From IMG/VR virus record IMGVR_UViG_3300045988_088004: DNA of 34,282 bases; one strand, written 5' to 3'. Within the stretch, counting starts at the first letter, position 1, and the number at the start of each line of letters is the position of its first letter. The notes under the pieces were generated by a model that was given only the letters and a program-made list of their open reading frames with translations, had not been told where the DNA came from and made no database searches. The position numbers were made by a program, and so were the translations under genes. This stretch comes from a virus. Positions 17,188 through 34,282 of the stretch are shown in pieces.

Positions 17188-17553
17188 ATGTATAAGAGTT
17201 GTACGAGATGCGGAAAAGTACACGATACGAACTACAAATGCAACCATAATAGATATAAAAAAGATACAGAAGCAAGAAAGCTAAGGCAAAAAAATATATG
17301 GCATACTAAGTCTGAGGAGATCAGAAAGAAAAGTAATTATCTTTGTAGTGTATGTAGAGAAGAAGGAAGATACATATACAAAGGACTAGAGGTACACCAT
17401 ATCACACCAATAGAAGAAGACAGAGACAGACTACTAGATAACTATAATCTAATATGTTTATGTAATTCCTGCCATAGATTAGCAGAATTAGGAAAAATTG
17501 ATAAAGATTATCTTTTTAAGTTAGCAAAGGAAAGGGAAAAAAATGATAAATAA
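17188..17553 (+). CDS. HNH endonuclease (packaging-associated type)
   Basis: CTRCGK...C, CSVCREEG...EVHHITPIEE...NYNLICLCNSCH. HNH proteins accompany HK97-type TerS/TerL in cos phages. Confidence 0.85.
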   Translation: MYKSCTRCGKVHDTNYKCNHNRYKKDTEARKLRQKNIWHTKSEEIRKKSNYLCSVCREEGRYIYKGLEVHHITPIEEDRDRLLDNYNLICLCNSCHRLAELGKIDKDYLFKLAKEREKNDK

Positions 17554-18268
17554 TTATAATGTGTATATGCATATATTTCCTAACCAAAAAAAATATATAG
17601 GAATAACTTGCAGAAACCCACTTAAAAGGTGGGGACATAATGGATACGGATATAGGTTGCAACCTAAAGTATATAATGCAATTTTAAAATATGGCTGGGA
17701 TAATATAGAACATAAAATATTATTTACTGATTTATCAAAAAAAGAAGCAGAACAAAAAGAAATAGAACTTATAGCAAAATACAAAGCTACTAATATTAGA
17801 TATGGTTATAATATCGAGAATGGCGGTAATACGATAGGTAAACACAATAGAGAAACAATACAAAAGATTAGAGAAGCAAATATAGGTAAATTAGTTAGTG
17901 ATATTACTAAGAATAAAATAAGTAATGCTAATAAGGGCAGAGTTATTACTGAAGAAACTAGACAAAAGTTAATAGAAGCAGGTAAAAAACCTAAAAGTGA
18001 AATAGGAAAGCAACATATAAGAGAAGCTAAATTAGGAGAAAAAAACCCTATGTATAATAAACCTAAAAGTAAAGAGACAATAAAAAAATATCAATTATCA
18101 AGAGGGACAAAGAAAGTAATTCAATATGACTTAGAAGGAAACATTATAAGAATATGGGACAGTACTTATGATGCAAGTAAAGAATTAAATATTTGTTTAA
18201 AAAACATAAGAAGAAGTTGTATATCTAAATATAATGCTGGAGGTTATAAGTGGTTATATGTTGACTAG
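17543..18268 (+). mobile_element. Free-standing GIY-YIG homing endonuclease gene (I-TevI-like, NUMOD3 repeats, C-terminal HTH)
   Basis: GIY-YIG core VYMHIF...KKYIGIT...RW...NIENGGN. There are four repeats of the type ET.QKI.EAN.GK. The C-terminal pattern is VIQYDLEGNIIRIWDSTYDASKELNI...I. Lower-GC codon style than its neighbours. Overlaps the HNH stop by 11 nt. Confidence 0.85.
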
Positions 18269-18496: not shown

Positions 18497-18700
18497 ATGA
18501 AGTTAAAAGTAGAATACCTACCTATAGACGAGATAAAACCATACGAGAATAATGCTAAGATACACACTCCAGAACAGATAGAGCAAATCAAAGCAAGTAT
18601 CCAGCAATTCGGAATGAATGATCCTATAGGGATATGGAGTAAAGAGAATATCATAGTAGAAGGGCATGGACGATTACTAGCGTGCCAAGAGTTAGGATAA
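18497..18700 (+). CDS. ParB-like nuclease N-terminal domain, 5' fragment of a frame-broken ParB-methyltransferase gene
   Basis: IDEIKPYENNAKIHTPEQIEQIKASIQQFGMNDPI...EGHGRLLACQELG then TAA. The sequence continues seamlessly in the -1 frame. Confidence 0.8.
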   Translation: MKLKVEYLPIDEIKPYENNAKIHTPEQIEQIKASIQQFGMNDPIGIWSKENIIVEGHGRLLACQELG

Positions 18701-19761
18701 AAGAGATACCAGTAATAAGACTGGACGACCTAACAGACGAGCAAAGAAAAGCCTATACGCTCGCACACAACCAATTGACAATGAATACAGGATTTGACTT
18801 AGATATTCTAAATCAGGAGCTAGCAGATATCAGCATAGATATGCAGGAGTTCGGATTTGAAGACATAAATAAAGACGATTTTAATATCGAGGAAGACGAC
18901 TTCGAGTTCAACGAAGAAGAAATACCTGAAGCCAAAGCGAAACGAGGGGAAATCTACAAATTAGGAGAACATATCCTGATGTGTGGAGATAGCACAGCTC
19001 GACAGGACGTGGAAAAACTACTAAATGGAAAAATAGCAGACTTAGTAGTTACAGATCCACCATATAACGTAGCGATTTCTAATAGTCAGGGAATGACAAT
19101 AGAAAACGATGATATGTCAGACGAGAGCTTCAGGAAATTTCTAAATAGTGCATTTGAAAACATGAGTGATAGCCTAAAAGAAGGCGGAGCGTTTTACGTT
19201 TGGTATGCTTCCAGAGAACATATAAACTTTGAATCAGCATTACTAAATAATAACCTAACAGTAAGACAACAGCTAATATGGGTAAAGAACTCGTTAGTAC
19301 TTGGTAGACAAGACTACCAGTGGAGACACGAACCATGCTTATACGGATGGAAAGACGGAGAAGGTCATTATTTCATATACGACAGGACACAAAGTACAGT
19401 AATGGAGCAAAAAGAAATCGATATAGATAAACTAAGCCCAGAAGAAAGCAAAGAATTATTAAAAAAAATATATTCAGAAATACCATCCACGATAATAAAA
19501 GAAAACAAGCCACAGAAGAATAACCTACATCCAACTATGAAACCAATAGAACTAATAGGAAAGCTAATACATAACAGCTCAGAAAAAGGACAAATAGTTC
19601 TGGATTTATTCGGTGGATCAGGAAGCACACTAATAGCCTGCGAGCAGTTAGGAAGAAAGTGCTACATGATGGAATACGATCCGATATACGTGGATGCAAT
19701 TATACAAAGATATGAAGAATTTACAGGAAAGAAAGCAGAACTAATAAGTAGGGGAGATTAA
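18682..19761 (+). CDS. DNA methyltransferase (N6A/N4C beta class, DPPY), 3' part of the ParB-MTase gene
   Basis: IKEIPVIRLDDLTDEQRKAYTLAHNQL (rest of the ParB domain), motif IV VVTDPPYNV and motif I LDLFGGSGSTLIACEQLGR. Confidence 0.85.
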   Translation: MPRVRIKEIPVIRLDDLTDEQRKAYTLAHNQLTMNTGFDLDILNQELADISIDMQEFGFEDINKDDFNIEEDDFEFNEEEIPEAKAKRGEIYKLGEHILMCGDSTARQDVEKLLNGKIADLVVTDPPYNVAISNSQGMTIENDDMSDESFRKFLNSAFENMSDSLKEGGAFYVWYASREHINFESALLNNNLTVRQQLIWVKNSLVLGRQDYQWRHEPCLYGWKDGEGHYFIYDRTQSTVMEQKEIDIDKLSPEESKELLKKIYSEIPSTIIKENKPQKNNLHPTMKPIELIGKLIHNSSEKGQIVLDLFGGSGSTLIACEQLGRKCYMMEYDPIYVDAIIQRYEEFTGKKAELISRGD

Positions 19762-19765
19762 TGAA

Positions 19766-20563
19766 ATGATAGAAAAAGTAAACCCAAGCCACCCAGATAA
19801 AGTGGCAGACAGAATAGCAGGAGCAATAGTTGACCTTGCTTATACAAAAGAAGAAAATCCAAAGGTAGCAGTAGAAGTGCTAATAGGACATGGAGATTGC
19901 AAGATTATAATAGAAACTTCTGTATATATAGAATATGAAGAAATAAATAAAATTGTTGAAAGAATAACTAACAACAAAAATTTAAATGTAGAAATAAACG
20001 AAGTAGCACAGGATGAACACTTAGCCAAAAATCAAAGTAAAGAAATAAGATGTGGAGATAATGGAATATTTAAAGGTGTACCATTAACAGGCAACGAAAA
20101 AATGATTAGCAGATTAGCAAAACAAATATATGATGAATTTCCTTATGATGGAAAATATATACTAACAGATGATAAATTTATATGTTGCCAAAGTAATGCA
20201 ACAGACCACGATTTAAAAAAACTAATAGGAGATAGTGAAGATTATATTTTTAATCCATTAGGTTATTGGACAGGTGGAACAGATGTAGATACAGGAGCGA
20301 CTAATAGAAAGTTAGGTTCAGATATGGCACAAAGTGTTACTGGTGGAGGACTTCACGGTAAAGATTTATCTAAAGCTGATGTATCAGTAAATATCTACGC
20401 ATTCTTAAAAGCTCAAAAAACAGGAGAAACAGTAGAACTATGCTGTGCAATAGGTGATGACACAATAGATGGTAAGCCTTATAGCGAAATAGTTGAAATA
20501 GCAAGAGATTATATAAACAAAGTCGGTGGCTTTGAGAAGTTCGCAGAGTGGGGATTATTTTAA
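19766..20563 (+). CDS. metK: Compact S-adenosylmethionine synthetase homologue (265 aa)
   Basis: SHPDKVADRIAGAIVD resembles MetK GHPDKIADQISDA. CGDNGIF resembles GAGDQG. GGTDVDTGATNRKLGSD resembles GGPMGDCGLTGRKIIVD. GGGLHGKDLSKADVS resembles GGGAFSGKDPSKVDRS. Confidence 0.8.
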   Translation: MIEKVNPSHPDKVADRIAGAIVDLAYTKEENPKVAVEVLIGHGDCKIIIETSVYIEYEEINKIVERITNNKNLNVEINEVAQDEHLAKNQSKEIRCGDNGIFKGVPLTGNEKMISRLAKQIYDEFPYDGKYILTDDKFICCQSNATDHDLKKLIGDSEDYIFNPLGYWTGGTDVDTGATNRKLGSDMAQSVTGGGLHGKDLSKADVSVNIYAFLKAQKTGETVELCCAIGDDTIDGKPYSEIVEIARDYINKVGGFEKFAEWGLF

Positions 20564-20606: not shown

Positions 20607-20978
20607 ATGGCAAAAATGACATTAAACGAGCAAGCCCAAGAGATAATCAGAATAGCAGAAGAAAGCGGAGTTCAGAGTAACTTCTTTTTTATAACTACAT
20701 TTAAAAGATATCAAGTTCAACTAAATATGCTAACAGAACTAGAAAAGAAGATGAAGGACGACGGGATGCTAGTTACTAAAGAATACGTAAAAGGCAGAAA
20801 GAATTTATATTCTAACCCAGCACTAAAAGAATACAATACAACAACAGACAGTGCGAACAGAACAGTATCAACACTAATGAAAATAATTAAGAACTACAAC
20901 GTGGACGACGGAGAAACAGAAGTAGAAGAAGATCCACTACTAAAAGCTATAAACGGTAGTGACGACTATGAAGAATAA
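20607..20978 (+). CDS. terS: Terminase small subunit (P27-like)
   Basis: 123 aa directly upstream of and overlapping TerL. The pattern ...FKRYQVQLNMLTELEKKM...LVTKEYVKGRKNLYSNPALKEYN is typical of P27-family TerS. Confidence 0.7.
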   Translation: MAKMTLNEQAQEIIRIAEESGVQSNFFFITTFKRYQVQLNMLTELEKKMKDDGMLVTKEYVKGRKNLYSNPALKEYNTTTDSANRTVSTLMKIIKNYNVDDGETEVEEDPLLKAINGSDDYEE

Positions 20979-22647
20979 GGCGTACGATTTTTGTAAGATA
21001 TCAGTAAATCAGGAGACTACTCCTAAATACGTAAAATTACAAATGCAGGAGTTTATAGACACAGTAGAAGACAAAGACAAAAAATATACCATAAACGAAA
21101 CTAAACTAAAACAAGTAAATAATATATTAAAGCTATTAGTAATGCCTAAAGGACTAAAAGCAGGACAGACGCTATACGAATGTACTACAGGCTATCAATG
21201 GCTTTTTTATATAGCTATACTATGTACGGTATATAGAAGCAACCCTAAAAAAAGAAGATACGAAATAGGAGTACTAGAGATATGCAGGAAGAACTTTAAA
21301 ACGTTTACGATAGCGACTATCTTTATACTACTATTCTTAACAGAGCCGAAGTTCTCTAAGTTTTTTAGTGTAGCTCCAGACGGAGCATTATCTAGAGAAG
21401 TAAGAGAAGCGATAAGCGAAATTATCAGGAGTTCGCCTTTGATATACGAGTACAAAGATAATAAAAGATTTAAGATCCTGAGAGATTATATTCTTTTCAA
21501 GCCGACGCAGGTAACATACATTCCGTTAAGTTATTCTACAAGTAGATTAGACGGAAGATTACCGAACGCCTTCATAGTAGACGAGGCAGGAGCATTACCA
21601 ACCAGCTACGCTATCGAAAGTATGAAGTCAGGACAATTAAACATACTAAATAAATTAGGCTTTATAATCAGTACTAAATATCCTACAATAGATAACCCTT
21701 TCGAAGACGAAGTAAATTACTCTAAGAAGGTACTAGACGGACTAGAGAAGGACGAGACTAGATTTAGTTTATTATACGAGCCAGATAAGACGAAGGACTG
21801 GGAAACGGACGATATGATCCTAAAGCAAAGCAACCCTGTGGCATTAGAGATACCAGAGATATGGAACGACCTAGTAAAAAAAAGAGCGTACGCAATAGCC
21901 GTAGAGAGTGCGAGGGAAAACTTCGTAACAAAGCATTGCAATATTATATATCAGGGAGCAGGAACAGAAACCTATATAGACGTAAAAGACGTACAGGAGT
22001 GCAAACAAGCTAAAATAAACTGGAACGGTAGAGTAGTATACGTAGGACTAGACCTATCAGAGAGTAACGATAATACCAGCGTAAGCATGGTTACAGTAGA
22101 CGACAATAACAATATACTAGCTGACAGCTTTGCCTTTATTCCAGAGGGAAGAATAGAAGAAAAAACAGTAACAGAGAAGGTAAATTACAGGGAACTAATA
22201 AGAACAGGAAAAGTAATAGCCTGCGGAGACAAAGTAATAGACTACGCAGTAGTAGAAGACTTTATATTAAATCTAGAGACTAAATACGGAGTACAGATCC
22301 AAGCTATAGGATATGACCGCTGGAATGCACTTAGTACAGCTCAGAAACTAGAGCGAGCAGGATATAACCTAGTAGAGATCAGACAGCACTCTAGCGTATT
22401 ACACCCACCTACAAAGTTACTAAAAGAAAAGATACTAGCTAAAGAGTTCCAATACGAAAATAATACGCTACTAGAAATCAACTTCCAGAACGCAAGATGC
22501 ACGTATGACACAAATAAAAATATGTACGTACACAAAAAGAAAAGCACAGGAAAAGTAGATATGGTAGTTTCAATGCTAAACGCAATATATCTACTACAGC
22601 AAGACGTATTTTTAAATCAGATGGACTTTGCTATTCAGGTATTTTAG
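20968..22647 (+). CDS. terL: Terminase large subunit
   Basis: Terminase_1-type ATPase (RKNFKT Walker A-like, FIVDEAG Walker B) and nuclease half (VYVGLDLSESNDNTSVSMV...GYDRWN). The maximal ORF starts at GTG 20959. Confidence 0.9.
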   Translation: MKNKAYDFCKISVNQETTPKYVKLQMQEFIDTVEDKDKKYTINETKLKQVNNILKLLVMPKGLKAGQTLYECTTGYQWLFYIAILCTVYRSNPKKRRYEIGVLEICRKNFKTFTIATIFILLFLTEPKFSKFFSVAPDGALSREVREAISEIIRSSPLIYEYKDNKRFKILRDYILFKPTQVTYIPLSYSTSRLDGRLPNAFIVDEAGALPTSYAIESMKSGQLNILNKLGFIISTKYPTIDNPFEDEVNYSKKVLDGLEKDETRFSLLYEPDKTKDWETDDMILKQSNPVALEIPEIWNDLVKKRAYAIAVESARENFVTKHCNIIYQGAGTETYIDVKDVQECKQAKINWNGRVVYVGLDLSESNDNTSVSMVTVDDNNNILADSFAFIPEGRIEEKTVTEKVNYRELIRTGKVIACGDKVIDYAVVEDFILNLETKYGVQIQAIGYDRWNALSTAQKLERAGYNLVEIRQHSSVLHPPTKLLKEKILAKEFQYENNTLLEINFQNARCTYDTNKNMYVHKKKSTGKVDMVVSMLNAIYLLQQDVFLNQMDFAIQVF

Positions 22648-22656
22648 GAGGGTAAT

Positions 22657-23727
22657 ATGATAAAACACGATAATATATTTTATGTGAGAAATATCCATGC
22701 AATAGGCGGAGTAGAAACGTACGTATACGAGCTAGCTAAAAAGTACAAAGACTACGATATAGCAGTAGTATGTAAGACTATAGCTCCAGAACAACTAAAA
22801 AGACTAAAAAAGTTCTGTAGAGTTTATATCCATAAAAACGAACAAATAGAATGTAAATTACTAATAACTAACTGGGATACGTCTATCATTAAATACGTAA
22901 ATAAAGAAGCTAAAGTATATACAGGACTACATACAGACTATAGTAATTCAACAGAGATACTAGGACTTCCTAAAGACGATCCGAGAATAACATATATCGG
23001 AATAACAGAAGACAGTAAAAAGAAGTTCGAAGATATAACAGGAATAAAAAGGACTATTCTATGTAGAAACCCTTTAGAATTGGAGGAAGATCCGCCAGTA
23101 CTAACACTAATGAGTGCAACTAGACTAAGCTCCATAAAAGGCGGAGATAGAATGCTAGCAATAGCAAACGAGCTAGATAGACAGGGTATAGATTATATAT
23201 GGCTACTATATACTACAGACGAATATCAGAGCAACCCAGTATGGAAAAATAAAAACGTAATACACATGAACAATAGATTAGATTTAGGTAAGTTTATGAG
23301 AAAAGCAGACTGGATAATTCAGCCGTCAATATGCGAAGGAGATAGTTACACACTAAAAGAAGCACTATATCGAGGAGTACCAGTAGTAGTATGCGAACTA
23401 CCATACTTTAAAGAGATAGGAATAAAAGACGGAGAAAATGCTTTATTTTTAAAAGAAGACAGTAGCAACGTAGAAGAAGTAGTAAAGAAAATGAAAAAAC
23501 CGCTAAAGTTCAAATTCGAGCCAGTAAAAGATGGATACGATAAACTACTAGCAAAAGGTAAAAGCATATATCAGCAGGAATTAAAAACAATGGTAGAAGT
23601 ACAATGTATAAACAAATACCACGACTTAGAACTAAAGAGACTAATAACTCCAGAAGATAAACCATACAAAGTAAATAAAATAAGAGCAGAAGAACTAGAA
23701 GAATTAAATCTAGCAGTAAGGAGGTAA
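22657..23727 (+). CDS. GT4-family (GT-B, retaining) glycosyltransferase with a C-terminal ~45-aa domain duplicated in the next ORF
   Basis: RBS taggaggg. IGGVETYVYELAK N-terminal half. The C-terminal half carries E-x7-E: PSICEGDSYTLKEALYRGVPVVVCELPYF...GENALF. Confidence 0.8.
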   Translation: MIKHDNIFYVRNIHAIGGVETYVYELAKKYKDYDIAVVCKTIAPEQLKRLKKFCRVYIHKNEQIECKLLITNWDTSIIKYVNKEAKVYTGLHTDYSNSTEILGLPKDDPRITYIGITEDSKKKFEDITGIKRTILCRNPLELEEDPPVLTLMSATRLSSIKGGDRMLAIANELDRQGIDYIWLLYTTDEYQSNPVWKNKNVIHMNNRLDLGKFMRKADWIIQPSICEGDSYTLKEALYRGVPVVVCELPYFKEIGIKDGENALFLKEDSSNVEEVVKKMKKPLKFKFEPVKDGYDKLLAKGKSIYQQELKTMVEVQCINKYHDLELKRLITPEDKPYKVNKIRAEELEELNLAVRR

Positions 23728-23732
23728 GAGAA

Positions 23733-23933
23733 ATGGTAAAAGTACAATGCATACTAGACTACAACGATCTACAACTAAAGAGACTAGTAAAAGTAGGAGA
23801 AGAATTAGAAGTAGCAAAAGCTAGAGCAGAAGTTCTAGTAGAAAAAGAACTAGTAAAAGTAGTAGAAGTAATTCCAGAAGAAGAAAAAACACCAGCTAAA
23901 AAAACTACAGCAAAAAAAACAAATAAAAAATAA
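23733..23933 (+). CDS. Small protein (66 aa) with K-rich tail; paralog of the glycosyltransferase C-terminus
   Basis: MVKVQCILDYNDLQLKRLV compares with MVEVQCINKYHDLELKRLI at 23590. RBS aggaggtaagagaaATG. Confidence 0.6.
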   Translation: MVKVQCILDYNDLQLKRLVKVGEELEVAKARAEVLVEKELVKVVEVIPEEEKTPAKKTTAKKTNKK

Positions 23934-23966: not shown

Positions 23967-25277
23967 ATGGGACTATTCGATAGATTTAGAAAAGAAGAAA
24001 AAAGAGAAGAAACACCAGCTCCAGTTAATCAGGAAATGGTAGCAAACGACGTATTATTAAAAGCATTATTAAATAGCGAGCCTATTACCAGAGAACAGGC
24101 ATTAACATTACCTGCAGTATCAGGAGCGGTAGATTTCATAAGCGGAATGATAGCGTCAATGCCAGTAAAACTATACAAGTATAAAGACGGTAAAGTAGAA
24201 AGTAAGGACGACGATCCTAGAGTACTACTACTAAACGGAGACACAGGAGACACTCTAGATGCATTCCAGATGAAAAAAGCAATGGTAGAAGACTATCTAC
24301 TAGGAAAAGGTGGATACTCATATATCAGGAGAAATAGAAACGACGTAACTGGACTATTCTACGTAAAAGATATATACGTAAGTGCTATACCTAATTTCAA
24401 ACCAATATATAAAGACTTTTATCTAATAGTAGAAGGCCAAACTTACCAAAAGTACGAGTTTATAAAGTTACTTCGTAATACAAAAGACGGAGCAACTGGA
24501 GTAGGACTAACAGAAGAAGTAGGAACAGCACTAGAAACAGCATTTAATACGCTACTATATCAACTAAATATAGTTAAATCTGGAGGAAATAAAAAAGGCT
24601 TTCTAAAATCACAAAGAAAGCTAGGGCAGGACGAAATAAACGTATTAAAGCAAGCATGGAACAACCTATATGCTAATAGTACAGAAAACGTAGTAGTTTT
24701 AAATAATGGACTAGAGTTTCAAGAAGCTAGTAATAGCTCAGTAGAAATGCAACTAAACGAAAGCAAGAAGACGCTACAGGCCGAAATAAATAATATATTT
24801 CATATATACCCTAATGATTTTTATAGGACATTTAAAGAAGGAATATATCCAATAGTAAAAGCATTCACTACAGCTTTAAACAAAGACTTATTACTAGAAA
24901 AAGAAAAGAATAAAATGTTCTTCGAGTTCGACGTAAAAGAGATCCTAAAAGCAAACCCTAAAGAGCAAGCAGAAATATATAAACTATATAAAGAAATAGG
25001 AATGCTAACTATAAACGAACTAAGAAGAATGGATAACAGAAATATGATAGAAGGAATGGACGTATTAAATGTAGGATTAGGAGCAGTACTATACGACGCA
25101 AATACGCACCAATTCTATACACCTAATACAGATACAACAGCTAATATTACAGATACACCAGAAGCACAGCCAGAAAGTGCAATAGACGAAAACGCAGAAG
25201 CACAAATACAAAAATTGTTATTAGATAAAGAACTAGATACAGAGTTTGAAGAAAGCGGAAATAGTTCTGACGCATAG
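23967..25277 (+). CDS. Portal protein (HK97 family)
   Basis: 436 aa with RBS aaaggagg. Positioned before the protease and capsid genes. Motifs ...ALTLPAVSGAVDFISGMIASMPVKLY... and ...GGNKKGFLK... are typical of Phage_portal. Confidence 0.9.
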   Translation: MGLFDRFRKEEKREETPAPVNQEMVANDVLLKALLNSEPITREQALTLPAVSGAVDFISGMIASMPVKLYKYKDGKVESKDDDPRVLLLNGDTGDTLDAFQMKKAMVEDYLLGKGGYSYIRRNRNDVTGLFYVKDIYVSAIPNFKPIYKDFYLIVEGQTYQKYEFIKLLRNTKDGATGVGLTEEVGTALETAFNTLLYQLNIVKSGGNKKGFLKSQRKLGQDEINVLKQAWNNLYANSTENVVVLNNGLEFQEASNSSVEMQLNESKKTLQAEINNIFHIYPNDFYRTFKEGIYPIVKAFTTALNKDLLLEKEKNKMFFEFDVKEILKANPKEQAEIYKLYKEIGMLTINELRRMDNRNMIEGMDVLNVGLGAVLYDANTHQFYTPNTDTTANITDTPEAQPESAIDENAEAQIQKLLLDKELDTEFEESGNSSDA

Positions 25278-25292
25278 GAGGAGGTGATATAA

Positions 25293-26000
25293 ATGTTAGT
25301 TAGAGTAAAAGAAGATAAAGTAGAAATCTCTGGCTATGTCTGAGTAAACGCTATAGAGCGAGATAGTAAGCCACTCTGGAGCAGAGTAGGACAATTCATA
25401 GAACGTATATGTAAAGGAGCTTTTAAAAAAGCACTAAAAAGAAACGACGACGTACATATACTTCTTAATCATGACTGGGACAGAGATCTAGGAAGTACCA
25501 AAGCAGGAAACCTAGAACTAGAAGAAGATAACATAGGACTAAAAGCTAGAGCCACTATCACAGATCCAGAAGTAATTAAAAAAGCCAGAGCAGGAGACTT
25601 AGTAGGCTGGAGTTTCGGTTTCTCAGACAGAGACGTAGAAAAATCTATTAGAGACGGAATGCCACACAGAGCAGTAAAAGACCTTGACTTAGCCGAAGTT
25701 TCTATCCTTGATAGAAGAAAGTCACCAGCTTACGAAGGTACACTAATCACAGCCAGAGCAGAAGAAGACGTAGTACACTTCAGAGGCGAAGACTTCATAG
25801 ACGAAGTTCAAACAAAAGAAGAACAACCAGAAGAAACACCAAAAGAAGAAGCATCTACACCAGTAGAAGCAGAGGTACCAGAAAAAGCAGAAGCTCAGGA
25901 GGTACCAAATGAGGCAGAGCCTAAGCAACATGAAGAAGTTGTAAATATAGATTATTCTAAATATGAAGAAATCATAGCAGAAATGAAGGAGGAAAAATAA
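25293..26000 (+). CDS. HK97-type prohead protease (S78) with acidic C-terminal tail; one in-frame TGA at 25341-25343
   Basis: A strong RBS aggaggaggtg precedes ATG 25293. Reads MLVRVKEDKVEISGYV*VNAIERDS...GAFKKAL...VHILLNHD...GWSFGF... in one frame through to 26000. There is no ATG/GTG/TTG in frame between the TGA and 25659. Confidence 0.8.
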
Positions 26001-26002
26001 CT

Positions 26003-27181
26003 ATGGAAAAAGAACTAAACGAAAGAAAGAATGATCTTATTACTAGAGCAGAAGAAACTCTAAATAAGGCAAAAGAAGAAAAAAGAGAGCTAACAGAAGC
26101 AGAAGCAGAAGAATTAGCAGAAATCAGAGATAATGTAAGACGCATTATGAAAACATTAGAATTGAAAGGAGAGTTTGACAAAATGGAAGGAAAAGCATTA
26201 GAAAAAGAAGGGCTTCCAAAAGACGAAGCTAAAACAGAAGTAGAAATCGAAAAAGAAGAAAGAGCATTAAACGAAGAAAAAGCATTCGCTGATTATATTA
26301 GAGGAGTAGTAACTAACGAAAGAGCTACTAATATGACTTTAACCGATAATGGAGCTGTAATTCCTACTACTATTGCTAATCGTATTATTCGTAAAGTATA
26401 TGATATTTCACCTATTTTACAAAAATCAACTAAATACAATGTAAAAGGAACACTAGAATTACCATACTACGACGAAAGTACACAAGCTATTACAGTAGCA
26501 TTCGCTACAGAGTTCCAAGAACTAGAAAGCAATATCGGAAAATTAGATAGTATTACTTTAACAGGATACTTAGCAGGAGCTTTATCTTTAGTTTCAAGAT
26601 CACTAATTAACAATTCTCAATTCGATATCGTAGCATTCGTAGTAGACGTAATGGCTTATGATATTTCTAGATTTATTGAAGATACATTACTAAACGGTAA
26701 AGGATCTGTAACAGGTTTATCTAACTTAACTAATGTTAAGACTACAGCATCAGCTACAGAAGTAACAGCAGACGAACTAATCTTAGCACAAGGACAAGTA
26801 AAAGACGTTTATCAAAATAACGCTATCTGGATCATGTCACCAGCTACAAGAGATGCTATCCGTAGCTTAAAAGACAAAATGGGAAGATATTTATTACAAG
26901 ACGATATCAGCTTACCATTTGGAAAATCTTTATTAGGAAAACCTGTATATGTATCTGATAATATGAACGATATCACAGCAGGAAAAACAGCAATTTACTA
27001 TGGAGATATGTCAGGACTTGCTACTAAGTTCTCAGAAGAATTAAGCATCCAAGTATTAAGAGAAAAATATGCTACAATGCACGCTGTAGGAGTAGTAGGC
27101 TGGATCGAGTTCGATAGTAAAGTAGAAAACGCTCAAAAGATCGTAGCAGTAAAAATGGCTGGAACAACTCCAAGTGCATAA
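26003..27181 (+). CDS. Major capsid protein, HK97 fold with N-terminal delta (scaffold) domain
   Basis: 392 aa with a coiled-coil N-terminus of about 100 aa, then ...TNMTLTDNGAVIPTTIANRII...GYLAGALSLVSRSLINNS.... Follows the protease. Ends ...AGTTPSA. Confidence 0.9.
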   Translation: MEKELNERKNDLITRAEETLNKAKEEKRELTEAEAEELAEIRDNVRRIMKTLELKGEFDKMEGKALEKEGLPKDEAKTEVEIEKEERALNEEKAFADYIRGVVTNERATNMTLTDNGAVIPTTIANRIIRKVYDISPILQKSTKYNVKGTLELPYYDESTQAITVAFATEFQELESNIGKLDSITLTGYLAGALSLVSRSLINNSQFDIVAFVVDVMAYDISRFIEDTLLNGKGSVTGLSNLTNVKTTASATEVTADELILAQGQVKDVYQNNAIWIMSPATRDAIRSLKDKMGRYLLQDDISLPFGKSLLGKPVYVSDNMNDITAGKTAIYYGDMSGLATKFSEELSIQVLREKYATMHAVGVVGWIEFDSKVENAQKIVAVKMAGTTPSA

Positions 27182-27245
27182 GAAAAAATATAATTAAAAA
27201 ATATTATTTGTTGCTTAGGTAACTCCAAAAAGAAGGAGGTAGAAA

Positions 27246-27542
27246 ATGAATAGTATTTCAAAAGTAAGTGATATCACTACTAACGATATAGCCGAATATA
27301 TCAGACTAGTAGAAGTATCACAGGACGACAAGAATACACTATCTAACTTATTAGAAATTGCTAAGACCTTTATATCAAATTATACAGGACAGACAGACCT
27401 AGATCAGTATCAGGACTTCGTAATCGTAGCATTGATACTTTGTCAGGATATGTGGGATAACAGGACGCTATACGTAGATAAAGCGTCTCTATCATATCCA
27501 GTAGAGACAATTCTAGGAATGCATAGTATCAACTTACTATGA
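27246..27542 (+). CDS. Head-tail connector (gp6-like)
   Basis: ...ITTNDIAEYIRLVEVSQDDKNTLSNLLEIAKTFISNYTG... is the gp6-like pattern. Position after the capsid gene. Confidence 0.7.
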   Translation: MNSISKVSDITTNDIAEYIRLVEVSQDDKNTLSNLLEIAKTFISNYTGQTDLDQYQDFVIVALILCQDMWDNRTLYVDKASLSYPVETILGMHSINLL

Positions 27543-27901
27543 GTAAGCCAGTAAACGCAGGCAAGTATAATCGTAGAATAGTTATATATGAAATAGTGGA
27601 GGGTATAGACAGTGCAGGCTTCCCAGCACCAGTAGAAAAAGATATACTTACTACTTATGCAGAAGTAAAAACTTTACGAGGCTATACCCTAATTACTAAT
27701 AATAGTGACTTTGACAAAGCATACGTAAACTTTACTATTAGATATTCGAGTACAGTAGAAGAAACATACTACAATAGCAATAATTCAAATAGAGATATTT
27801 TAATTAAGTTTAGAGATAAAGATTATAAGATAGAATATCTAAATAATATAGACTTTGCTAACGTAGAGCTAGAACTACAAGCTAAGGAGGTAACTCATTA
27901 A
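27539..27901 (+). CDS. Head closure / head-tail adaptor protein
   Basis: ATGA overlap, 120 aa. YNRRIVIYE...TTYAEVKTLRG pattern; gene order. Confidence 0.6.
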   Translation: MSKPVNAGKYNRRIVIYEIVEGIDSAGFPAPVEKDILTTYAEVKTLRGYTLITNNSDFDKAYVNFTIRYSSTVEETYYNSNNSNRDILIKFRDKDYKIEYLNNIDFANVELELQAKEVTH

Positions 27902-28323
27902 TGGCTAAGTTCGTAATGCAACTACCTACAGAGATCCTAAAAGATATAGAATACATTAACGGCAATAGTGATAAGATATTCGGAGAAATGACGCAAGCAG
28001 GAGCAGAAGTAACGCTAAACAATATCAAAAGTAACATACCTAAAAGTTTCGCAGACAGTAATATAATGAATTGTTTAAAAGTAACTAGGGTATATAAAAC
28101 TCCTACAGATAACGGTATAAATACTAAAGTGGGCTTCTTCGGATATTTTACAAATAAAAACGGAGTAAAAACTCCAGCACCGCTAGTAGCAAACGTATTC
28201 GAGTACGGATCTAGTAAATTTACAAAGCAACCTTTTTTTAGAAGATCATTCAAAAAGGCACAAATAGAAAAAGCTATGTTAGAAGCACAAAAAAGATATA
28301 GTAAAGGACTATTAAATGAATAA
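27901..28323 (+). CDS. HK97 gp10-like neck/tail-completion protein
   Basis: TAATG overlap, 140 aa. ...FEYGSSKFTKQPFFRRSF... pattern; gene order. Confidence 0.6.
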   Translation: MAKFVMQLPTEILKDIEYINGNSDKIFGEMTQAGAEVTLNNIKSNIPKSFADSNIMNCLKVTRVYKTPTDNGINTKVGFFGYFTNKNGVKTPAPLVANVFEYGSSKFTKQPFFRRSFKKAQIEKAMLEAQKRYSKGLLNE

Positions 28324-28672
28324 CGAACTACAAACAATATTCGCAAACTTCACAGTAGATGGACAAGCTATACCTGTATCATTTATGAGATATACAGGTA
28401 AGGCTACAACCTATATAACCTATCAGGAAATACAGGACGATACGTCCTTCAGTGCAGACGACGAACTACAAGCCTACGTAAGATACTACGACTTTGATAT
28501 ATATAGTAAAGGTAATTATCTAACAATAGTAGAAAGTGTAAAAGAAATATTAAAAGCAAACGACTGGAGATATCAGCCTAGTATGACTTCGCAGGACTTA
28601 TACGAAGACGATACAGGTTACTATCATAAGACGTTATGCTTTGCAAAAATAGAGGAGGAGCAAAATGGCTAA
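28316..28672 (+). CDS. Tail terminator-like protein
   Basis: 118 aa, overlapping both neighbours, immediately before the major tail gene. Assigned by position only. Confidence 0.45.
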   Translation: MNNELQTIFANFTVDGQAIPVSFMRYTGKATTYITYQEIQDDTSFSADDELQAYVRYYDFDIYSKGNYLTIVESVKEILKANDWRYQPSMTSQDLYEDDTGYYHKTLCFAKIEEEQNG

Positions 28673-29225
28673 AATAGGATTACAAAACTTTTTATATGGA
28701 GTACTTACAGAAGCCAGCGACGGTAAAGCTACATACGGACAAGTGCTAAAACCTGGAAAAGCAGTAAGCTGTAGTGTAAGTATTTCAAGTAACGACGCTA
28801 AGCTATACGCAGACGACGGCTTAGCAGAAAGCGATACTTCATTCCAAAGTGGAACAGTATCAATTGAAGTAGATAACGCAGATTTAACTACACAAGCTAC
28901 ATTACTAGGACATACAATATCAGGCGAGGAAATGGTAAGAAAAGCTACTGATACAGCTCCATACGTAGCATTAGGACGTATCGTAACTAAGATGGTAGCA
29001 GGAAATTATCAGTATAAAGTAGAGTTCTTACCAAAAGTAAAATTCTCAGAGCCTAGCCAAGAAGATACAACTAAAGGCGAAAGCGTAGAGTTCGGAACTA
29101 CTACATTAGAAGGAATTATATCTACGCTAGCAGACGGTACATGGAGCAAAACTCAAACATTCGAAACAATAACAGAAGCAAGAACATACTTAAACGGTTT
29201 ATTCGAATCAACTCCAAGTGCATAA
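28665..29225 (+). CDS. Major tail (tube) protein, phi13-like
   Basis: The N-terminus MAKIGLQNFLYGVLTEASDGKATYG...GKAVSCSVSISSNDAKLYADDG matches the phi13-family major tail pattern. Ends ...FESTPSA. Confidence 0.85.
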   Translation: MAKIGLQNFLYGVLTEASDGKATYGQVLKPGKAVSCSVSISSNDAKLYADDGLAESDTSFQSGTVSIEVDNADLTTQATLLGHTISGEEMVRKATDTAPYVALGRIVTKMVAGNYQYKVEFLPKVKFSEPSQEDTTKGESVEFGTTTLEGIISTLADGTWSKTQTFETITEARTYLNGLFESTPSA

Positions 29226-29230
29226 TAACA

Positions 29231-29260
29231 GGGTAGGCGAATAAACCTACCCCTTTTTTT
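29231..29260 (+). terminator. Rho-independent terminator/attenuator after the major tail gene
   Basis: The stem is gggtagg/cctaccc with an 8-nt loop, followed by 7 T. Confidence 0.8.
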
Positions 29261-29934: not shown

Positions 29935-30939
29935 ATGGCTAGCTTTGGAGGATCAATAAAACTAACAGGCGCAGACGAGTATAAGAACGCATTAAAGCAA
30001 ATATCACAGAGCTTACGAGAAACTGGATCAGAACTAACGGCCGTAGCTAGTAGATATGATAAGAACGATAGCTCATTATCTACATTAAAGGCAAAAACTA
30101 CAGAAATGACTAGCGTATTATCAAAGCAAAATCAAGCCTACCAGCAATTAAAGAGTGCATACGATACTTTTAGTGCTAAAGTAAGCCAGCAGGCACAGGC
30201 ACACGATAAACTAGTTCAAACATACGAAAAAGAAAAGCAAGAATTAGAGAATATCCGTAAAGCATCTGGAGAAAGTTCGCAAGCCTTTCAAAACCAGCAG
30301 GCTAAAGTAAACGATCTAGCTAGTGCAGTAGCTAAAAGTTCTCAAAATATGAACGAAAACCAGATAGCACTAAGCAAAATGAAAACACAGCTAAACCAAG
30401 CCGAGACAACAGTAAATAAAACAACTAAAGAAATAGAGGAATTAGGTAATGCAACCGAAGAAAGCGGAGAAAAAGCCAAAAAAGGTGGCGAAGGATATAC
30501 AGTATTTAAGAATATTCTAGCTAATTTAGGTACTCAGGCTATAAACAGCTGTATAAATGGACTAAAGTCTTTAGGTGGAGCATTTATAAACGTAGGAAAG
30601 CAAGCCCTAGCAAGCTACGGAGAGTTCGAACAGCTAAAAGGCGGAGTAGAAACACTATTTAAAGATAGTGCAGATACAATACTAGAGTATTCACAAAACG
30701 CATATATGACCGCTGGAATGAGTGCTAACGAATATATGAGTACCGTAACTAGTTTTTCAGCATCTTTAATACAGTCTTTAGGCGGAGACACGGAAAAAGC
30801 CGTAGAATACTCAGATAGAGCTATTACAGATATGTCAGATAACGCTAATAAAATGGGTACTTCTATGGAAATGATCCAAAATGCTTATCAGGGCTTTGCA
30901 AAATCTAATTACACAATGCTGGATAACTTAAAATTGGGT
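29935..30939 (+). CDS. Tape measure protein, exon 1
   Basis: Coiled-coil N-terminus ending ...NYTMLDNLKLG. The apparent stop at 30940 is the first intron codon. Confidence 0.85.
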
Positions 30940-31203
30940 TAACAAAATAGCTCAAGTAAAACCTCGTGAAAACGGTGAAACTCTCACGTAGACAATACCG
31001 TGCGAAGCCTAAAATTACAAAATATTGACAATTCAAAAAAGTAATTTTAGGAACGTGTAACGACTATCCCGAAAGGGAGTACACTCAAGCGAGTGGAAGT
31101 GCGAGGAACTCGAAAGAGTTAAGAGATAGTCTACTCTATATGGCGACATATAGCAGTTCATAAGAGAACGGTACGAAATTAGCGACTTCGTGTGAATGCA
31201 AGG
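30940..31203 (+). ncRNA. Group I intron (264 nt, no ORF)
   Basis: Removing it joins ...MLDNLKLG to YGGTKGEMERLIADANK in frame. Exon 1 ends in U and the intron ends in G. Candidate helices: P1 ttgggt (30934-30939) with gctcaa (30950-30955, U.G at the splice site); P3 cctcg/cgagg (30962-30966/31102-31106); P6 11-bp stem (31008-31018/31041-31051); P7 gacta/tagtc (31062-31066/31127-31131); P7.1 tccc-gaaa-ggga; P7.2 cactc-aagc-gagtg; P8 aactc-gaaa-gagtt; J8/7 aagaga; P9 ctatatg-gcga-catatag. Confidence 0.8.
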
Positions 31204-32640
31204 TATGGTGGTACTAAAGGCGAAATGGAACGACTAATAGCAGACGCAAATAAAGTAAAAGAAGCTAACGGAGAAATGGCTAACCTATCTATAGACAGTT
31301 TCGCAGACGTAACAGAAGCAATACATATTATCCAAACAGAAATGGGTATAACAGGTACTACTTCTAAAGAAGCAGGAAGAACTATTCAAGGATCTGTAAA
31401 AGCCATGAAGTCAGCATGGAGCAACCTACTAACAAAACTAGGTGATGGATCAGCAAATATAGAAGATTTAGTACGTAATTTAATGCTTACTATCGCAGGA
31501 GACGGAACAGAAAATAACTTAGGAGTATTAGGAAACGTAATGCCAGCCGTACAAAGAATATCAGAGGGTATAATGAATGCTTTACCGCAATTATTAAACG
31601 GTATTATTTCAGTATTACCTCAATTCTTAGAAGCTGGAGTAAATATAATTAACGGCCTAGTAACAGGTATTCAACAAAATATGCCAGCTATAATGTCAGC
31701 TACTATGCAGATCATAAATACCCTACTAACTACTATCATAAATAACCTACCTAAAATACTACAAATGGGAATACAAGTAATAGTATCACTAGTACAGGGA
31801 ATAGCTCAGCAACTACCTACACTAATACCGCAAATGGTAGAGACAGTAATAACAATAGTAGAAACTTTAATAGATAACATAGATTTAATAATTGACGCAG
31901 GAATACAGCTAATTATAGGCCTAGCCGAAGGCTTAATAGAAGCACTACCACAGCTGATAGATAAAATACCTATCATAATAGATAAATTAGTAGAAGCCAT
32001 TACGAATAACCTACCTAAGATAATCGAAATGGGTATAACTTTAATAGTTAAACTAGCCGAAGGTTTAATAAAGGCTATACCGCAACTAGTAAGCAAGATA
32101 CCGCAGATTATAAGCTCATTAGTAAATGGAATAGCAAGCTATTACTCTAAAATCTTTAGTGTAGGTGGAGAATTACTAGGAAAAGTAAAAGATGGTATCA
32201 TGAGCGGAATATCAGGAATGCTAGATGTAGGTAAAAATCTAGTTCAGGGATTATGGAATGGTATCGATAACGCTAAAGACTGGGTACTAGATAAAATTAA
32301 AGGTTTCGGGGAGTCTATAGTAGATGGAATTAAATCGTTCTTCGGGATCAACTCACCATCAACTTTATTTAGAGACCAAGTAGGTAAAAACCTAGCACTA
32401 GGTGTAGGAGAAGGTTTTTCAGACGAAATGGCTAACGTAACAAACGAGATGCAGAACGCTATTCCTAACAGCTTTGATACAGACGTAAACGTAGGAACTA
32501 CAACTACAGGAATGAATAATAATTACTTTAATATAGTAGACGCATTTAAAGAAGCACTATCAGAAATGAAAATAGAATTAGACGACGAAGTAGCAGGACG
32601 CTTCGTAGAGAATACAATAACAAACGCTATATATAACTAG
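31204..32640 (+). CDS. Tape measure protein, exon 2
   Basis: Starts YGGTKGEMERL.... Has a long hydrophobic LPxL/LPKI repeat region typical of tape measure proteins. The track ORF's GTG start at 31192 lies inside the intron. Confidence 0.85.
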   Translation, partial: YGGTKGEMERLIADANKVKEANGEMANLSIDSFADVTEAIHIIQTEMGITGTTSKEAGRTIQGSVKAMKSAWSNLLTKLGDGSANIEDLVRNLMLTIAGDGTENNLGVLGNVMPAVQRISEGIMNALPQLLNGIISVLPQFLEAGVNIINGLVTGIQQNMPAIMSATMQIINTLLTTIINNLPKILQMGIQVIVSLVQGIAQQLPTLIPQMVETVITIVETLIDNIDLIIDAGIQLIIGLAEGLIEALPQLIDKIPIIIDKLVEAITNNLPKIIEMGITLIVKLAEGLIKAIPQLVSKIPQIISSLVNGIASYYSKIFSVGGELLGKVKDGIMSGISGMLDVGKNLVQGLWNGIDNAKDWVLDKIKGFGESIVDGIKSFFGINSPSTLFRDQVGKNLALGVGEGFSDEMANVTNEMQNAIPNSFDTDVNVGTTTTGMNNNYFNIVDAFKEALSEMKIELDDEVAGRFVENTITNAIYN

Positions 32641-33379: not shown

Positions 33380-33733
33380 ATGAATAACAATAATATGTTT
33401 ATGGTACGAGGTGACACTTTTCGTTTTAGTGTAGAAATAGAAAACCTACAAGAAGACTTAACTAGTGCTTACTTTTCGTGCAAAAAGAACTATGACGACG
33501 TAGAATATATATTCCAAAAGTCATTAGGTGACGGAATAACAAAAAAACAAACTACAGAAAAAAGTAAAATATACGAAGTAGTAGTAGCTCCAGAAGATAC
33601 AGAAAACGTAGAATGCGGTAACTATTTTTATGACTTACAAATAGCCGTAAACGGTGACATATATACACCACTTAACGCTATTCTAAAAATAGAAAAAGAC
33701 GTAACAATAAATAGCGTTACGCCTTCGGCTTAG
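33380..33733 (+). CDS. Small beta-sandwich (Ig/BppU-N-like) virion protein ending in TPSA
   Basis: RGDTFRFSVEIE...YFYDLQIAVNGDIYTPLNAILKIEKDVT pattern. RBS aaggagg. The C-terminus is SVTPSA. Confidence 0.5.
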   Translation: MNNNNMFMVRGDTFRFSVEIENLQEDLTSAYFSCKKNYDDVEYIFQKSLGDGITKKQTTEKSKIYEVVVAPEDTENVECGNYFYDLQIAVNGDIYTPLNAILKIEKDVTINSVTPSA

Positions 33734-33744
33734 GAGGTGAAAAT

Positions 33745-34282
33745 ATGAATTGTAATTACAAAGTAAATATAAAAGATATACAAAATAAATATAAGTTTAA
33801 TATATTTGCTATGGGTGGATATAATGATAGCGACCTAAGAAAAATGATAGAAAGCGTATATTATGCACTACCTAGAGTAAACGGATCAGGAACAAGCGTT
33901 ACTTTAACTGATACGGCTTTTAGTTATATGAAGAATAAATTATATGCTACTGATATAAGCCAAGAAGGAGAGCCAACAATAGATGCACCACAAACAATAC
34001 ATACTATTAGTGGAGATAACGAAGTAGTAGTACGTGGGAAAAATTTAATACCGTTTACTAATCAAGATTTTACTTTAAATGGGTTAAGATATTATGTTGC
34101 TAATGGAAGCTTATATGTAGACGGCACAAGTCATGGAGAAGTATACTCAACAAATGCTAGTTTTAAAAATAATTTTAACTTTACATTACCAGCAGGAACA
34201 TATACTTTACAAAGAGATAATAATATTGCTACTTATCTTGACAACAAAGCAACAGGAACTCATTTAGTAACAAATAGTGGTA
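33745..34282 (+). CDS. Tail fibre / receptor-binding-like protein, 5' part of the wrap-around gene (continues at base 56)
   Basis: RBS taggaggtg precedes ATG 33745. The frame is open to the window end and continuous with 1-807 through the 55-nt overlap. Confidence 0.6.
   Translation, partial: MNCNYKVNIKDIQNKYKFNIFAMGGYNDSDLRKMIESVYYALPRVNGSGTSVTLTDTAFSYMKNKLYATDISQEGEPTIDAPQTIHTISGDNEVVVRGKNLIPFTNQDFTLNGLRYYVANGSLYVDGTSHGEVYSTNASFKNNFNFTLPAGTYTLQRDNNIATYLDNKATGTHLVTNSG

Follow-up and report, generated by a model that had tools for sequence, protein, structure and literature searches.

In the mycobacteriophages Che8, Corndog and Myrna, the capsid and tube subunits carry glycans at their C-termini, for which phage glycosyltransferases (GTs) are needed, as stated in passages of three articles (PMC12619734, PMC12363180 and PMC11256854, citing Freeman 2023); one cassette can hold several GTs, and in actinophages also a methyltransferase, according to a passage of a fourth (PMC13313380). 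The present work concerns a comparable arrangement in the temperate siphophage genome IMGVR_UViG_3300045988_088004 (the window, i.e. the whole stretch of 34,282 nt that was analysed; 32% GC), which has genes for a serine recombinase, a CI-like repressor and a complete head-tail module. Three of its proteins, namely the major capsid protein (MCP), the tail tube protein (TTP, the major tail protein) and a protein of 117 amino acids (aa), end in the residues T-P-S-A, and a GT gene lies between the genes for the large terminase (terL) and the portal protein. Sequence comparisons suggest that such C-terminal tails are probably portable acceptor or recognition tags for a phage-encoded O-glycosylation of the virion. 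To our knowledge, phage virion glycosylation has so far been shown only in mycobacteriophages. The abstract of Freeman et al. 2023 (Cell Host Microbe 31:1216) reportedly speaks of little evidence for it in the wider phage population. The hosts of the phages considered here are low-GC Firmicutes of the rumen and gut, and a literature search returned no description of such tags, or of virion glycosylation, for rumen or gut Firmicutes phages.

The likeness to Che8 and Corndog lies in the phage-encoded GTs, in the C-terminal residues shared by capsid and tube (GS/GS in Che8, GS/DS in Corndog; the sequences, which were checked, end in ...KTGS and ...SDGS, and in ...LVGS and ...KGDS, respectively) and in the placing of GT genes in the head operon, those of Corndog lying between the portal and protease genes. 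In contrast, the enzymes are not detectably homologous: BLASTP comparison of gp108-110 (Che8) and gp35-38 (Corndog) with the cassette enzymes gave a best E value of 0.05, over short stretches. The Ser residue is penultimate here (Ser-x-COOH) and terminal there; in addition, the tag is found here on further virion proteins, the cassette occupies a hypervariable terL-portal slot, the hosts are Firmicutes, not Actinobacteria, and the glycosylation is predicted. The logic would be that of Che8 and Corndog, carried out with non-homologous enzymes and a different motif in Firmicutes hosts.

Two further systems bear comparison. GtfA/Gtf1 (PDB entry 4pqg), one of the protein O-GlcNAc transferases that act on serine-rich-repeat adhesins, shares with the GT of this genome the GT4 family and the GT-B fold, Gtf1 being a cytoplasmic enzyme that adds sugar to protein Ser residues; it was the best PDB sequence match of the GT (E = 8e-5), over residues 200-278 alone, which form the generic donor-binding region. 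Unlike that system, the genome holds no GtfB-like partner and no second GT-B gene, and the acceptor would be a short C-terminal tag in place of long Ser-rich repeats. In Pseudomonas aeruginosa 1244 pilin, the C-terminal Ser is glycosylated by the oligosaccharyltransferase PilO/TfpO, which makes it a minimal portable O-glycosylation site on a polymerising surface protein. There, however, a membrane enzyme performs a periplasmic, lipid-linked en-bloc transfer, whereas the enzymes considered here are predicted to be soluble Leloir-type GTs, with targets that assemble in the cytoplasm.

Virion proteins with matched C-termini

The MCP gene (26003-27181, + strand) encodes an HK97-family protein of 392 aa with an N-terminal delta/scaffold-like region (Pfam PF05065 Phage_capsid, 2.5e-43; phrog_10). 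The protein ends in ...KMAGTTPSA; its appendix, G-T-T-P-S-A, is encoded at 27161-27178 (stop codon at 27179-27181) and lies beyond the PF05065 domain, which spans residues 117-384. The TTP gene (28665-29225, + strand; 186 aa; phrog_88, 6.5e-35 over residues 1-165) ends in ...GLFESTPSA, with the appendix E-S-T-P-S-A, placed after the conserved ...YLNGLF, at 29205-29222 and the stop codon at 29223-29225. The gene for the 117-aa protein (33380-33733, + strand; phrog_1084, unknown function) is located between those for the distal tail protein Dit and the tail tip, and its product ends in an appendix of eight residues, I-N-S-V-T-P-S-A (33707-33730). An AlphaFold2 model of this protein, with a predicted local distance difference test score (pLDDT) of 90.6, is an Ig-like beta-sandwich in which the last 12 residues are disordered, and Foldseek returned Ig-like matches; these assignments agree with the protein identities given in the initial annotation of the genome. 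The AlphaFold2 model of the capsid, derived from a shallow alignment of 93-100% identity, reached a pLDDT of only 35; because it was unreliable, exposure of the capsid tag was argued from the ends of profiles and homologues alone. When the PDB was searched by sequence, the TTP had no meaningful match and the MCP matched the capsid of the Rhodobacter gene transfer agent alone.

The initial annotation had stated that these three proteins, and no other open reading frame (ORF), end in TPSA, and this was borne out: none of the other ORFs of the genome ends in this way, and the tetrapeptide occurs three times in the 46-protein proteome, always at the C-terminus, when 0.04 occurrences would be expected. 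In a simulation in which C-termini were drawn from internal tetrapeptides, the probability of finding at least three identical C-terminal ones was 2.6e-4. The annotation was also right about an exact string shared by the capsid and tail genes: the 17-nt sequence CAACTCCAAGTGCATAA forms the 3' end of both the MCP gene (27165-27181, + strand) and the TTP gene (29209-29225, + strand; a hairpin resembling an intrinsic terminator follows at 29231-29252). These are its only two exact copies in the genome, and two or more matches were obtained in none of 100 shuffles (0/100). Given the same peptide, identical codons for T-P-S-A and the stop would arise with a probability of 0.007 under the genome's codon usage, so that the 17-nt identity is non-random in its own right. 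The third gene specifies the tetrapeptide with other codons, as had been noticed before; it reads acg cct tcg gct tag, so that all four codons and the stop differ from those of the MCP and TTP genes.

The tails were then compared across ~340 related loci collected from IMG/VR, JGI metagenomes, GTDB genomes and Logan/ENA assemblies (L-numbers are locus labels). A search for near-identical DNA among cultured phages returned no relative, the only match being one of ~140 nt located in an intron described below. What is conserved across the loci is a flexible appendix of 5-8 residues ending in Ser-x-COOH (x = A, V, L, H, I, T or G). The tails vary among loci; a short linker rich in G, T, S and P, the penultimate Ser and a small or hydrophobic last residue are kept. 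Thus, the appendix that had been singled out at the start is indeed conserved, but the unit under conservation is Ser-x-COOH behind a G/T/S/P linker, not TPSA as such. Capsid tails in relatives include ...GTTPSA, ...GSTPSV, ...GNTPSH, ...GTKPSL, ...GTPASL and ...SSEISG; tube tails, ...TTPSA, ...SAPSH, ...SPSVSV, ...SPVSL, ...TQASL and ...NTISG; and those of the 117-aa protein, ...VTPSA, ...VTPSV, ...PIIVSA, ...QTASL, ...PTPSH and ...AEISG, among others. Untagged capsids of 88-89% identity end in ...KIVAVKMAS or ...VQMKSA, untagged tube homologues in ...YLTGLFT or ...GLFGH, and homologues of the 117-aa protein that have no tag (identity up to 89%) in ...KDVTRE. Placed beyond both the family profiles and the C-termini of untagged homologues, the tails are appendices outside the conserved folds.

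The proteins that have gained a tag differ by lineage, and may be the 117-aa protein, the protein encoded upstream of the tube gene, a head-tail connector or a tail-completion protein. In the third gene of this genome and in L101, L103 and L105, the codons used for one and the same tag differ, AGY versus TCN serine codons among them, and selection at the level of the peptide is apparent in the tags. Alignment of homologues, a check proposed with the initial annotation, showed the tail to be conserved at the protein level across relatives with differing codons; a recent gene-conversion patch lacking conservation at the protein level, which would have spoken against a tag, is not what was found. 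Three known C-terminal signals were considered and rejected, i.e. the sortase LPXTG signal, the class I PDZ ligand (S/T-x-hydrophobic-COOH) and the ssrA degron (...LAA): the invariant Ser is at -1 and not -2, and there is neither an LPXTG motif nor an ...AA end. The 'PF' ends shared in L256 were set aside as well, as they belong to unrelated proteins, including a dUTPase.

Within genomes, the tails match. Capsid and tube had the same terminal residue in 25 of 27 distinct tail pairs (8 expected; permutation p <=1e-5), and the matching extended to three proteins in L101 (...PASL, ...QASL, ...TASL), L105 (...GTSA, ...TPSA, ...TVSA), L149 (...TPSA, ...IRSA, ...TVSA) and L029 (...AASE, ...SASE, ...LPSE). 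Mismatches at the last residue, V versus A in L081 and T versus A in L087, were observed solely in relatives sharing at least 95% identity with the genome. Shared 3' stretches were also present elsewhere: 16 identical nt in L008, in synonymous codons unlike those of the genome (including TCT versus AGT for Ser), 12 nt in L011/L012, and 10 nt in L003/L004 and in L013/L014. The 17-nt identity points to a real homogenisation of nucleotides within the genome on top of the selection on the peptide.

Glycosyltransferase cassettes in the terL-portal slot

The slot is bordered on the left by terL (20959-22647, + strand; PF03354/PF20441 on the identical gene of L081) and on the right by the portal gene (23967-25277, + strand; PF04860 on homologues). 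The first of its two genes (22657-23727, + strand) encodes a GT4-family glycosyltransferase of the GT-B, retaining type, which matched PF00534 with 33.3 bits (cut-off, 26.4 bits) and phrog_2170, annotated as glycosyltransferase. Its EX7E motif comprises E227...E235, and E227, G228 and E235 are invariant in an alignment of seven homologues of 36-85% identity; with a Glycos_transf_1 domain and the EX7E motif, the predicted protein has what defines CAZy family GT4. The second gene (23733-23933, + strand) encodes a 66-aa protein with a Lys-rich tail (p66), a DUF7210-like paralogue of the C-terminal, p66-like domain of the GT (weak Pfam DUF7210 match), which forms part of the cassette. The GT gene starts 9 nt after terL, within the late operon; no + strand terminator was found between terL and the end of the TTP gene, and promoter-like matches were below chance. 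In relatives, the slot was seen to contain GT4 alone, GT2 plus GT4, two GT2 genes, a GT4-GT2 fusion of 573-584 aa with or without an S-adenosylmethionine (SAM) methyltransferase, or GT2 plus a nucleotidyltransferase with or without GT8. In relatives without a cassette, 10-70 nt separate terL from the portal gene, or a homing endonuclease lies in between.

The initial annotation had also proposed asking whether the tail tracks the GT in related phages, and it does so almost perfectly in two unrelated capsid lineages. In the genome's own capsid lineage (lineage 1), for which dereplicated loci with a visible terL-portal junction were counted, with L149 placed among those having a tagged capsid, a non-acidic S-x capsid appendix was present in 23/23 cassette loci and 0/62 cassette-less ones (Fisher p ~1e-19, uncorrected for phylogeny). 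On the capsid tree, Fitch parsimony required at least five independent co-transitions of tag and cassette. These include the loss of both in L002 and L007 (88-89% capsid identity), which are nested in the tagged clade, and separate lineages with both at L149, L093 and L180. The penultimate Ser of the TTP was present in 19/19 loci with a GT, compared with 8/42 without one. For lineage 2, defined by the unrelated capsid family phrog_544, 80 relatives were fetched, and scoring was limited to loci in which the sequence upstream of the capsid gene spanned 4.3 kb or more; a GT was found in 25 of the 27 tagged loci and in none of the 16 untagged ones. The tag is here almost always ...S-L and is carried by the capsid, tube and tail-completion proteins.

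When IMG/VR was searched with the GT alignment alone, the capsid families phrog_544, phrog_422 and phrog_267 were brought in, and in many of the loci found in this way the capsid and a tube-like protein of ~165 aa (phrog_3099) shared an S-L, S-V, S-A or S-I end. In a uniform count over all loci that made no use of annotation, at least two proteins of at least 100 aa had the same S-x end in 67/106 loci with a GT versus 22/129 without (p = 3e-13), and most of these 22 are contigs cut upstream of the slot. Among cultured phages, this GT family was found in the Butyrivibrio phages Arawn, Idris and Closwp03 alone; the capsid of Arawn ends in ...IASV and a tail protein in ...VTSA.

The DUF7210-like domain, of ~48 residues (consensus LKKKVKVRCIKNYNDLELNRLIEVGEEYEVTKERAEYLVEKGLVEILE), occurs in the genome at residues ~300-356 of the GT (23554-23724) and in the product of 23733-23933. 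In lineage 1, it is either fused C-terminally to a GT4, a GT8 or a nucleotidyltransferase, or present as a free Lys-tailed protein of 62-77 aa, and a profile of it matched 22/23 GT cassettes versus 0/65 GT-less loci. As a reader of the tag it was rejected, since lineage 2 has it in GT-less loci and not in GT2-type cassettes. Homing-endonuclease genes (GIY-YIG/NUMOD or HNH) recur around terL, in several relatives within the slot used by GT cassettes; they were located at 17543-18268 in the genome, 671-1360 in L014, 5295-5954 in L090, 7365-8117 in L046 and 2555-3253 in L096.

The proposed glycosylation tag and alternative explanations

If the tails are tags for O-glycosylation, an appendix made up of a G/T/S/P linker, Ser in the penultimate position and a last residue that is small or hydrophobic would hang off the exposed capsid, tube and Ig-like tail protein. 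A soluble GT cassette (the GT4 plus the DUF7210-like protein), co-transcribed with the head genes from the terminase-portal slot, would recognise the free ...S-x-COOH and O-glycosylate the Ser, possibly also a neighbouring Thr, in the cytoplasm, before or during assembly. The GT2, GT8, GT4-GT2 fusion, nucleotidyltransferase and SAM methyltransferase of relatives would place different glycans on the same tag, resulting in a variable sugar coat, with further cassette enzymes extending and methylating the glycan. The tag being portable, any exposed protein that gained the tail would join the coat. Tags might have originated as the native end of one substrate, copied onto others; the ends of an untagged lineage-1 capsid (...MASA) and an untagged lineage-2 tube (...TFTPSL) would fit such an origin. 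The benefit could be shielding from antibodies, proteases and lectins in the gut and rumen. A peptide-level recognition tag, possibly a GT acceptor, had been suggested at the outset: recognition of the peptide gains support from its conservation and from its tracking of the GT, and glycosylation itself stands as a prediction. A broader formulation, for and against which we find ourselves evenly divided, is that linker-Ser-x-COOH would be a minimal portable sequon, acting as a genome-wide address for virion glycosylation in several unrelated capsid families of abundant rumen and human-gut Firmicutes siphophages, with a dipeptide uniform per genome and swappable terL-portal GT cassettes diversifying the glycan.

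If the tags are sites of glycosylation, virions with a sugar coat would be widespread among the abundant phages of gut and rumen, and virion glycosylation would be predictable from sequence, namely from a GT cassette and matched Ser-x C-termini on capsid and tube. In the broader formulation, the tags would represent a new, sequence-predictable class of C-terminus-directed protein O-glycosylation, the first outside actinobacteriophages. The hypervariability of the cassettes would suggest that the surface glycan of the phage is under diversifying selection, exerted for example by mucosal antibodies, lectins or proteases, and a six-residue tag plus one soluble GT would make a compact glyco-engineering tool for phage particles or other proteins. 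The Butyrivibrio phages Arawn and Idris, which have a homologous GT, offer a cultured test system.

Several observations weigh against a role of the tails in glycosylation. Matched acidic tails, with capsid/tube pairs such as ...GTPASE/...GGSASE, ...GGGDSE/...GGAESE and ...GGESES/...GGVES, were present in six loci (L029, L035, L136, L141, L145 and L168) whose 13-20 kb contain no GT. L103 (S-V) and L293 (S-L) are tagged and have no GT in the sequenced stretch; L271, also without a GT, is ambiguous, its capsid ending in ...PGL. About one third of the loci with a more distant GT4 homologue lack shared S-x ends in the sequenced stretch. The last residue does not follow the GT family: GT4s that are 91% identical go with A/A in L116 and with H/H in L011, and lineage 2 keeps S-L across different cassette types. 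The notion that the last residue follows the GT clade was thus ruled out at the available resolution, and a simple model in which the GT pocket reads x is therefore insufficient. Finally, GtfA, a protein O-GlcNAc transferase, resembles the GT only weakly and over a local stretch (~80 residues). The acidic tags without a GT and the matching of last residues are left unexplained by O-glycosylation through the cassette, and would be compatible with the involvement of a second reader or a host enzyme. Confidence in the proposal was not set higher because of the acidic tags, the GT-less S-V and S-L tags and the independence of the last residue from the GT family.

The acidic-tag loci are relatives with 56-59% capsid identity, in which the DUF7210-like domain is also absent from the 13-20 kb. 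L136 has an insert encoding an ADP-ribosyltransferase-domain protein of 389 aa, with no counterpart in the gene maps of L029, L145 and L168. L103 is a prophage in GCA_045633265.1 that belongs to a different phage lineage; between positions 3819 and 15265 of this locus, four of its proteins end in S-V, all with different codons (capsid ...KPASV, tube-like protein ...KTLSV, homologue of the 117-aa protein ...SNLSV and DUF859 protein ...YTKSV), and its portal gene lies directly 3' of terL.

The same observations bear on the explanation that the tags are read by some other factor, be it a host enzyme or an unrecognised phage enzyme that adds another modification, or a docking partner that binds free C-termini, with the GT as an optional later step or a passenger. 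This would account for loci that have no GT and yet have matched acidic tags or, in some cases, S-V or S-L tags, and for a last residue that is co-ordinated within genomes independently of the GT type. It is nevertheless unlikely: no candidate reader gene is common to the tagged loci, the DUF7210-like domain fails in this role in lineage 2, and the non-acidic tags are linked to GT cassettes through at least five co-transitions, across unrelated capsid families.

That the GT acts elsewhere, on host wall polysaccharide or teichoic acid (for lysogenic conversion or exclusion) or on phage DNA, with the tags being structural spacers, assembly aids or charge/solubility tails, is very doubtful, since the joint gain and loss of tags and cassettes in several lineages would be left unexplained and proteins that differ in fold would not need an identical C-terminal dipeptide for a structural role. 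Conversion of the host surface is a frequent role of GTs in temperate phages. The phage is itself temperate, with its serine recombinase and CI-like repressor, and such conversion is mentioned in a passage of PMC12619734; moreover, in the Butyrivibrio phage Arawn the homologous GT sits among replication genes. In the present genome, however, the GT is in the late operon, with neither a terminator of its own nor an above-chance promoter, and not at the position of a moron near the attachment site, and the early genes tested included no hydroxymethylase or other partner for DNA hypermodification. That the shared ends are by-products of recombination without peptide function, i.e. patches copied between gene ends (concerted evolution) or module-boundary sequences, is highly improbable: the 17 identical nt (P = 0.007 given the peptide) and the shorter identities in L008, L011/L012, L003/L004 and L013/L014 would fit it, but no flanking homology supports conversion, wholly different codons write the same peptide in the third gene, L103 and L105, unrelated lineages have kept the motif, whose occurrence is linked to that of a GT, and last-residue mismatches are confined to the very recent relatives L081 and L087.

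Other features of the genome

The gene 3' of that for the 117-aa protein runs from 33746 to 34282 and on through positions 1-~800, its product ending in ...STALKDLNNL. As this gene spans the end and the start of the record, the record is taken as a whole genome, complete and circularly permuted. The tail-tip genes Prophage_tail (818-2521) and DUF859 (2521-4302) lie at the genome start.

A group I intron (30930-31153, + strand; RF00028, 57 bits versus a gathering threshold of 50, E = 5.6e-14) splits the tape-measure gene, lying between ORFs 29935-30942 and 31192-32640. The intron was missed by a whole-genome Rfam scan at gathering threshold, which returned no match. A part of it (~31049-31187, ~140 nt) has 80-83% identity to sequences of Klebsiella and Aeromonas podophages, and two Listeria phages share a shorter stretch of ~37 nt at 97% identity. 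The same split was found in L087, L105 and L180, and the gene is intact in L081 (933 aa).

The prohead protease (S78) gene (25293-26000, + strand) has a 6-nt insertion, GTC-TGA, that places an in-frame TGA at 25341-25343, codon 17 (...EISGYV*VNAIERDS...), the only such TGA in the genome. The insertion is also present in the independent assemblies L087 and L088 and absent in L081, where the 229-aa gene is intact; the TGA could be a site of read-through or recoding, be bypassed by a downstream restart, or represent a shared defect. A gene for a ParB-like plus N6/N4 DNA methyltransferase protein is split over two overlapping frames (18497-18700 and 18682-19761, + strand), which correspond to a single 420-aa ORF in L081 and L082, and a truncated S-adenosylmethionine-synthetase-like gene (19766-20563) follows on its 3' side.

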